Shown here: piece after piece, positions 6,808 through 7,394 of the stretch
How positions within the stretch are numbered: position 1 is the first letter of the stretch
Layout of the letters: each line of letters opens with the position of its first letter
Assembly (NCBI RefSeq): GCF_044324785.1
Contig: NZ_CP172127.1
From: Escherichia coli
Lineage (GTDB): Bacteria > Pseudomonadota > Gammaproteobacteria > Enterobacterales > Enterobacteriaceae
Length of the DNA stretch: 64,000 nucleotides
Strand: one strand, 5' to 3'
Program-made: the position numbers and the translations under genes
The notes under the pieces: model-generated
What the model saw: the letters and a program-made list of their open reading frames with translations, nothing else
Told to the model about the DNA's origin: nothing
The model's database searches: none

Positions 6808-7394
6808 TTACATCATGTCTTTTTCTAAAAAAAATCTTGATAAATATTGATGGGGAGGAACACCAAAATATCTTCTGAAAACACTTACAAAATATGACGT
6901 GTTTTCATAACCGCATATCTCAGCAACTTTTCCAACAGAATATAAATTGTAGCTTAATAACCTTTCCGCCATCACCATTCGCTCTTCAAGAATTAATTTA
7001 CTAAATGATAAGCCTTCGTGCTTTAATTTTCTTTTTAACAGACTTTCACTCAGATACAGTCTTGAAGATATATCACAAAGTCTCCATGCTGCAGATATAT
7101 CCGTGTGAATAATAGCCTTAACTTTACTTCCTAAACTATTAAGACATCCAAATAAAAACTTTGCACTATTTTCTCTGAAGATAAGATAGCAAGACATGCA
7201 AGTGATATTTGATTTCTAACAAAATCCACAGTTCTGCCATCACAATTCAAGCATGCAATCAAGTTCTTTAACAATGAAAAATCTTCACATTCCACCATCA
7301 AGTATGCCGGATAAAACCTTCTTACAGAAAAAGGTGAGAGTGTGTTGCTTTTAAAGAAATCATTAACTGTTTTCTCTTCAACATCTACGATCAT
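6808..7394 (-). pseudogene. AraC-family regulator (AppY/EnvY-like), apparently frameshifted
   Basis: Two overlapping minus-strand ORFs in different frames (7131-7394 N-terminal part, 6808-7197 C-terminal AraC HTH domain); AT-rich. Confidence 0.5.

Follow-up and report, generated by a model that had tools for sequence, protein, structure and literature searches.

A prophage AraC/XylS-family regulator gene of Escherichia coli disrupted by two one-nucleotide deletions in T runs

A 64,000-nucleotide stretch of Escherichia coli DNA (the window) carries a broken prophage accessory ('moron') gene, which we conclude, with a probability of about 0.88, to be a true and inherited pseudogene that once encoded an AraC/XylS-family activator and was disrupted by two slippage deletions in T runs. 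The ancestral gene would have specified a 243-aa activator of the YdeO/AppY/GadX/PatE subgroup, and was presumably equipped with a Shine-Dalgarno sequence of its own as well as promoter-like sites and a terminator-like hairpin. Its setting would have been the interval from Q to the holin gene in a lambdoid prophage of the DLP12 type, alongside lipocalin and YbgA-like genes. The frame is proposed to have been shifted twice by independent replication slippage, first from T8 to T7 and later from T6 to T5, so that translation would end after a 44-residue N-terminal peptide without yielding the full-length regulator, and the acid-resistance activation predicted for the intact protein would be lost in this strain. 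The gene, its three fragments and its two lesions are as follows.

6808-7537, minus strand: whole AraC/XylS-family pseudogene, 730 nt (intact homologues 732 nt, 243 aa); an identical copy is annotated by PGAP
7543-7548, minus strand: AGGTGG, resembling a Shine-Dalgarno sequence, with 5 nt between it and the ATG at 7537, read from the sequence
7403-7537, minus strand: fragment 1, codons 1-41 followed by out-of-frame H-Q-I and a TAG stop
7415-7421, minus strand: frameshift site 1, a T7 run (T8 in intact alleles), 1-nt deletion, alignment column 188
7131-7394, minus strand: fragment 2, the middle ORF of 87 aa, with the homologous frame (residues about 42-128) running between the two sites
7154-7158, minus strand: frameshift site 2, a T5 run (T6 in intact alleles), 1-nt deletion, alignment column 452
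6808-7197, minus strand: fragment 3, the C-terminal ORF of 129 aa, 13 out-of-frame codons followed by residues 129-243
6838-7068, minus strand: AraC-type double helix-turn-helix DNA-binding domain, residues 44-120 of fragment 3, by Pfam

The open reading frame list contains three consecutive minus-strand frames here, each in a different frame from the others, with the first listed as 7403-7546 on the minus strand. By tblastn, the three pieces are collinear from end to end with the intact 243-aa protein at 93-100% identity (100% for residues 1-41 in fragment 1), and the three-way split is thus not a product of chance. The ATG at 7537 is taken as the start because it follows the Shine-Dalgarno-like AGGTGG and because the PGAP annotation uses the same start. 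[quoted passage not shown] A first-pass annotation of this DNA had described two overlapping minus-strand ORFs in different frames (6808-7197 and 7131-7394), a frame break within their overlap at 7131-7197 and an AraC-type helix-turn-helix in the C-terminal part, and the ORF list, the alignment described below and the Pfam scores respectively bear out each of these points. The gene extends 143 nt further in the 5' direction than the 6808-7394 that this annotation gave, to the ATG at 7537, and what it read as a single frameshift between two ORFs is a pair of frameshifts that leaves three.

The lesions were located by aligning the window with the E. coli CE10 gene and with phage Lambda_2G7a, which carries out the alignment to intact homologues that the first-pass annotation had proposed for finding the indel. 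The alignment contains exactly two length differences, and in each a T run of the window has lost one nucleotide: the run at 7415-7421 went from T8 to T7, and that at 7154-7158, where the N-terminal domain gives way to the DNA-binding domain, from T6 to T5. The CE10 copy is intact (a 732-nt CDS encoding 243 aa, WP_001146309.1), and with one T restored at each site the window allele becomes a continuous ORF of 243 aa, which departs from the CE10 protein at two residues only, S233L and L236F. Decoded normally, the window allele instead gives 41 correct residues plus H-Q-I before the stop, which amounts to a 44-residue N-terminal peptide. A 100% identical copy in genome JNE170426, equivalent to window positions 6808-7537, is annotated by PGAP as a "frameshifted" pseudogene of 730 nt (helix-turn-helix domain-containing protein), and the PGAP label is pseudogene for every frameshifted copy that we examined. 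The double-frameshift pseudogene is in this respect already known, as RefSeq labels identical copies as frameshifted, and homopolymer-slippage pseudogenes are commonplace among prophage accessory genes.

CE10, the isolated phage IdasGreatGrand, and lambdoid phages and prophages of a second clade (clade B, 82% aa identity) carry intact copies of the gene, and homologues at 82%, 64%, 54% and 31-32% aa identity are all single ORFs. Between clade A and clade B, the Nei-Gojobori dN/dS is 0.27 (0.33 in the N-terminal domain and 0.17 in the DNA-binding domain), which indicates that the intact gene is under purifying selection. The first-pass annotation left three options for the split frame, namely a true pseudogene, a sequencing error or programmed frameshifting; the two 1-nt deletions relative to intact, constrained homologues, together with the PGAP label 'frameshifted', favour the first.

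We compared window positions 6620-7888 by megablast with 5,426 complete E. coli genomes, 1,085 of which contain the region. Six independent complete genomes, with human, pig, cattle and other sources, carry both deletions: over these 1269 bp, JNE170426, PM22 and LR-51 match the window at 100% and BEC1-S17-ESBL-07, 23-AB02114 and Ec40743 at 99.9-100%. Since the window's own genome lies outside this set (the best match over 25 kb of the window has 96% coverage and 97.9% identity), the window represents a seventh occurrence of the double-deletion allele. In a haplotype table of seven sequences, four private SNPs (6997A, 6842T, 6834T and 6782T) are common to the window and JNE170426. The megablast ranking contains no genome between the six double-deletion carriers and the CE10-like T8/T6 genomes at 99.5%, and the window's SNP haplotype without both deletions was found in none of the 5,426 complete genomes. 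This fixed linkage to one SNP haplotype argues that the double deletion was inherited and is not a random homopolymer miscall. A sequencing or assembly artefact, in which the gene would be intact in the strain and two T's lost as homopolymer under-calls, has in its favour that both differences are 1-nt homopolymer deletions, the classic error signature of some platforms, and that systematic under-calling on some platforms could recur at the same sites. Such errors would, however, have to have produced the identical two deletions in six other independently assembled complete genomes, all of which share the four SNPs and among which none with the haplotype has T8 or T6; in 214 genomes, moreover, T7 travels together with an A at the linked SNP position 7374, as random errors would not. 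We consider an artefact very improbable, and judged from these comparisons sequencing error appears to be effectively excluded as the cause of the double deletion.

If the allele is real, its product could in principle still be made at full length by recoding, either through -1 ribosomal frameshifting or through RNA-polymerase slippage that adds one U per T run. Slippage anywhere in either run would recover the ancestral protein sequence unchanged, and site 1 reads GAU UUU UUU C, which is formally an X_XXY_YYZ heptamer (U_UUU_UUU). There is also a precedent within the AraC family, since the gene of the Shigella flexneri activator MxiE consists, as here, of overlapping ORFs at a U/T run, is expressed by transcriptional slippage, and has a split that is reported to be necessary for making the full-length activator (PMC1088944). 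In contrast to mxiE, the split described here is polymorphic, absent from divergent homologues (those at 82%, 64%, 54% and about 31% aa identity) and present twice, in runs of 7 and 5 nt; in bacteria, the use of transcriptional slippage, or selection against it, is typically apparent at about 9 nt (PMC1088944). One molecule would have to undergo two separate events, site 2 (AGU UUU UAU) is not a canonical heptamer, no internal Shine-Dalgarno sequence was seen upstream of either site, and the 80 nt downstream of sites 1 and 2 are without significant RNA structure (z = -0.92 and +0.31; upstream segments, z = +1.38 and +0.35). Clade B has TTTTCTTTTC at site 1 instead of T8, a run broken by C's, and the T5 change occurs in only 9 of the 5,426 genomes. 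A transcriptional-slippage gene of the MxiE or IS-element type was rejected given runs below about 9 nt and the clade B sequence. Programmed frameshifting is thus unsupported as an explanation, and we give it as little credence as an artefact; the U_UUU_UUU heptamer may restore the frame at site 1 at a very low level. Slightly less improbable is a residual function in which fragment 3 (6808-7197) would be translated alone and, as a free DNA-binding domain the size of MarA or SoxS, would continue to activate targets. AraC-family DNA-binding domains can be active in isolation, fragment 3 starts with an ATG and contains the complete double helix-turn-helix domain, and the second frameshift falls at the domain boundary. 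This ATG (7197) nevertheless lacks a preceding Shine-Dalgarno-like sequence and lies 340 nt inside the transcript behind upstream ORFs that terminate before or overlap it, the first 13 residues of the fragment are out-of-frame junk, and there is no conservation evidence for an allele confined to seven genomes.

An inherited pseudogene, which remains our preferred reading, is accompanied by single-deletion alleles in other genomes. Joint genotypes at the two sites, obtained by intersecting the per-site accession lists, include T7/T6 intermediates (ECCTRSRTH03, GF131 and AR434 are examples), at least 11 of which among the matches listed have the window's exact 89-nt flank, and T8/T5 intermediates in three strains, 2014EL-1346-6 (O6:H16), B2C and TW10598. 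In the annotation, both types of intermediate are pseudogenes with a frameshift. The clade-A version of site 1 is present in 582 complete E. coli genomes, at least 231 of which have the exact T7 sequence, 17 with the window's G at 7374 and 214 with the linked A. This A falls on the last query base, which BLAST trims from the alignment, and the 231 records of the >=99% band comprise the 17 rows at 100% and these 214; 40 evenly spaced rows of the ranking comprised 21 with T7 and 19 with T8. In the haplotype table, the distinct SNP backgrounds number four for T7 and two for T5, and the occurrence of T7 on several haplotypes suggests either recurrent slippage at the runs or recombination between prophages.

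With respect to phase variation, the 582 genomes divide about equally between T8 and T7, and T7 is found on at least four SNP haplotypes; the tract, however, is short and T7 behaves as a clonally stable allele, 214 genomes sharing a single haplotype. That group includes AR434 and AMA1167, the latter of which we take to be an ST410 reference strain. One possible reading, which we regard as rather unlikely, is that the T8 tract (codons 40-42) serves as a recurrent mutational off-switch of a prophage PatE-like acid-resistance regulator, with selection for inactivation in place of neutral decay. Were this so, T7 would have arisen several times and spread to about 40-50% of carriers, including one large clone, and the second deletion in the window would represent later decay after the switch. 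How often E. coli genomes carry a lesion in the T8 tract is mildly notable in itself, and since the tract is often inactivated, scoring the presence or absence of the gene overstates the number of strains with a working copy.

The resemblance to AppY and EnvY proposed in the first-pass annotation holds at the level of the subfamily but not as a closer relationship: AppY (31% identity over 237 aa, 131 bits, E=3e-42), EnvY (30%, in the C-terminal part) and YdeO (32% by BLASTP) are all more distant from the regulator than ECs_0287 of O157:H7 Sakai prophage Sp1, which is 54% identical and colinear over 235 aa (72% in the DNA-binding domain and 38% in the N-terminal domain). AppY, which aligns over its full length, is likewise an AraC/XylS regulator of a DLP12-type prophage, but the K-12 appY locus lies past the tail-fibre genes, between tfaX and ompT, whereas the gene described here lies between Q and essD. 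We rejected AppY as an orthologue on the basis of the 31% identity and the different position in the prophage, and regard it as a paralogue. The best NCBIfam model for the intact homologue is YdeO (residues 1-234, E=1e-36). Identity with YdeO, a component of the chromosomal EvgAS-YdeO-GadE circuit, was nonetheless rejected, as the score of 126.8 bits is far under the cut-off of 348 of the NF007407 equivalog and the likeness is again at subfamily level. GadX was rejected as well (NF007432 equivalog, 85.8 bits against a cut-off of 500, in the C-terminal part only).

ECs_0287, a prophage-encoded AraC/XylS regulator of 247 aa (243 aa here), is the closest relative of characterised type, and we infer it to be PatE (Z0321 of the EDL933 element OI-8/CP-933H) because it is the only AraC-family gene in Sp1. 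Sp1 is the thrW prophage, which we take to correspond to EDL933 CP-933H/OI-8. ECs_0287 adjoins pin and tail-fibre genes at the prophage end, in contrast to the position of the present regulator between Q and the holin gene, and it belongs to a protein cluster of 1,788 members. Membership of the regulator in this 90%-identity ECs_0287/PatE cluster, which has another context (pin, GIY-YIG, thrW end), was rejected; the regulator falls in a separate cluster and is a related paralogue only. The source names of the protein clusters are generic, either 'AraC family' or 'helix-turn-helix domain-containing', and the gene family of this PatE/AppY/YdeO-like prophage regulator is uncharacterised. In a comparison aimed at the prophage regulators PsrA (Z1789) and PsrB (Z2104), Sakai Sp6 (the espK/espN prophage), which we assume to be the counterpart of CP-933N, contains no AraC homologue by annotation or tblastn.

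PatE activates gadE, gadBC and hdeAB (PMC10877973), AppY regulates the AR2 acid-resistance genes via gadE (PMC10057817), and the prophage-encoded AraC regulators PatE, PsrB and AppY as a group activate AR2 genes (PMC10057817, PMC10877973). By homology at 31-54% identity, the intact protein probably activates acid-resistance genes (targets of the gadE and hdeAB type) as these regulators do.

The surroundings of the gene are those of a lambdoid prophage, with the following features.

1736-3661: large ORF at the window start, terminase/portal region, portal by match to GF131
5449-6619, minus strand: lysis cassette, directly downstream (holin essD 6404-6619, lysozyme rrrD 5907-6404, Rz 5449-5910, Rz1 5508-5690)
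6725-6746, minus strand: GC hairpin with a T tract after it, terminator-like, in the interval from the regulator stop codon to the holin start
7718-7842, minus strand: two sigma-70 promoter-like matches of 10/12 positions each in the AT-rich 351-nt upstream spacer, by consensus match only
7889-8848, minus strand: intact YbgA-family gene (DUF523 + DUF1722), 319 aa, cassette neighbour
9041-9565, plus strand: lipocalin (Blc-like) gene, cassette neighbour on the opposite strand
9721-10098, minus strand: late-gene antiterminator Q, upstream edge of the cassette
24328-25491, plus strand: prophage integrase intD, abutting tRNA-Arg(tct)
25507-25583, minus strand: tRNA-Arg(tct), adjoining intD

The prophage is of the DLP12 type and carries emrE, ybcK/L/M/N, ninE, rusA, nohD and terminase genes, and we take the tRNA-Arg(tct) at 25507-25583 to be the DLP12 argU attachment site. 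It differs from the K-12 DLP12 prophage in that it still has terminase and, by the match to GF131, portal genes at the window start. Across 6808-10098 and beyond, the order is Q, lipocalin, YbgA-like gene and AraC gene, followed by holin, lysozyme, Rz and Rz1, and the same cassette order is found in prophages (CE10, GF131), isolated phages (Lambda_2G7a, IdasGreatGrand) and metagenome-derived contigs; in K-12 DLP12, the Q-to-holin slot is occupied by nmpC. JNE170426 (positions 929-3000) has an IS3-family ISEc52 in place of the Q/lipocalin side, with ybgA cut to 909 nt, an arrangement that implies that the double-frameshift allele travels in different prophage contexts. The function of the three-gene cassette appears to be unstudied. 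With its presence in both active phages and DLP12-type prophages, this Q-proximal set of lipocalin, YbgA-like and PatE-like AraC genes could link prophage carriage to acid-resistance regulation.

The G+C content of the gene and its upstream spacer is 31-32%, against 49% for the window. Promoter-like matches in this spacer are not enriched (10 found, against a shuffle expectation of 8.7) and are thus weak evidence. Promoter-like sites, a terminator-like hairpin and low G+C content are together typical of autonomous phage accessory genes. The terminator-like hairpin, which lies on the late-operon strand, contains a polymorphic 1-nt indel at 6730 in three of the compared haplotypes.

The prophage contains a second AraC-family gene, ybcM (11803-12600, 265 aa), which is intact; tblastn found no similarity between it and the frameshifted regulator at E<1e-3. 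The ybcK-type recombinase gene at 13626-15152 is a single intact ORF of 508 aa in the window and is frameshifted by annotation in GF131, the best-matching complete genome.
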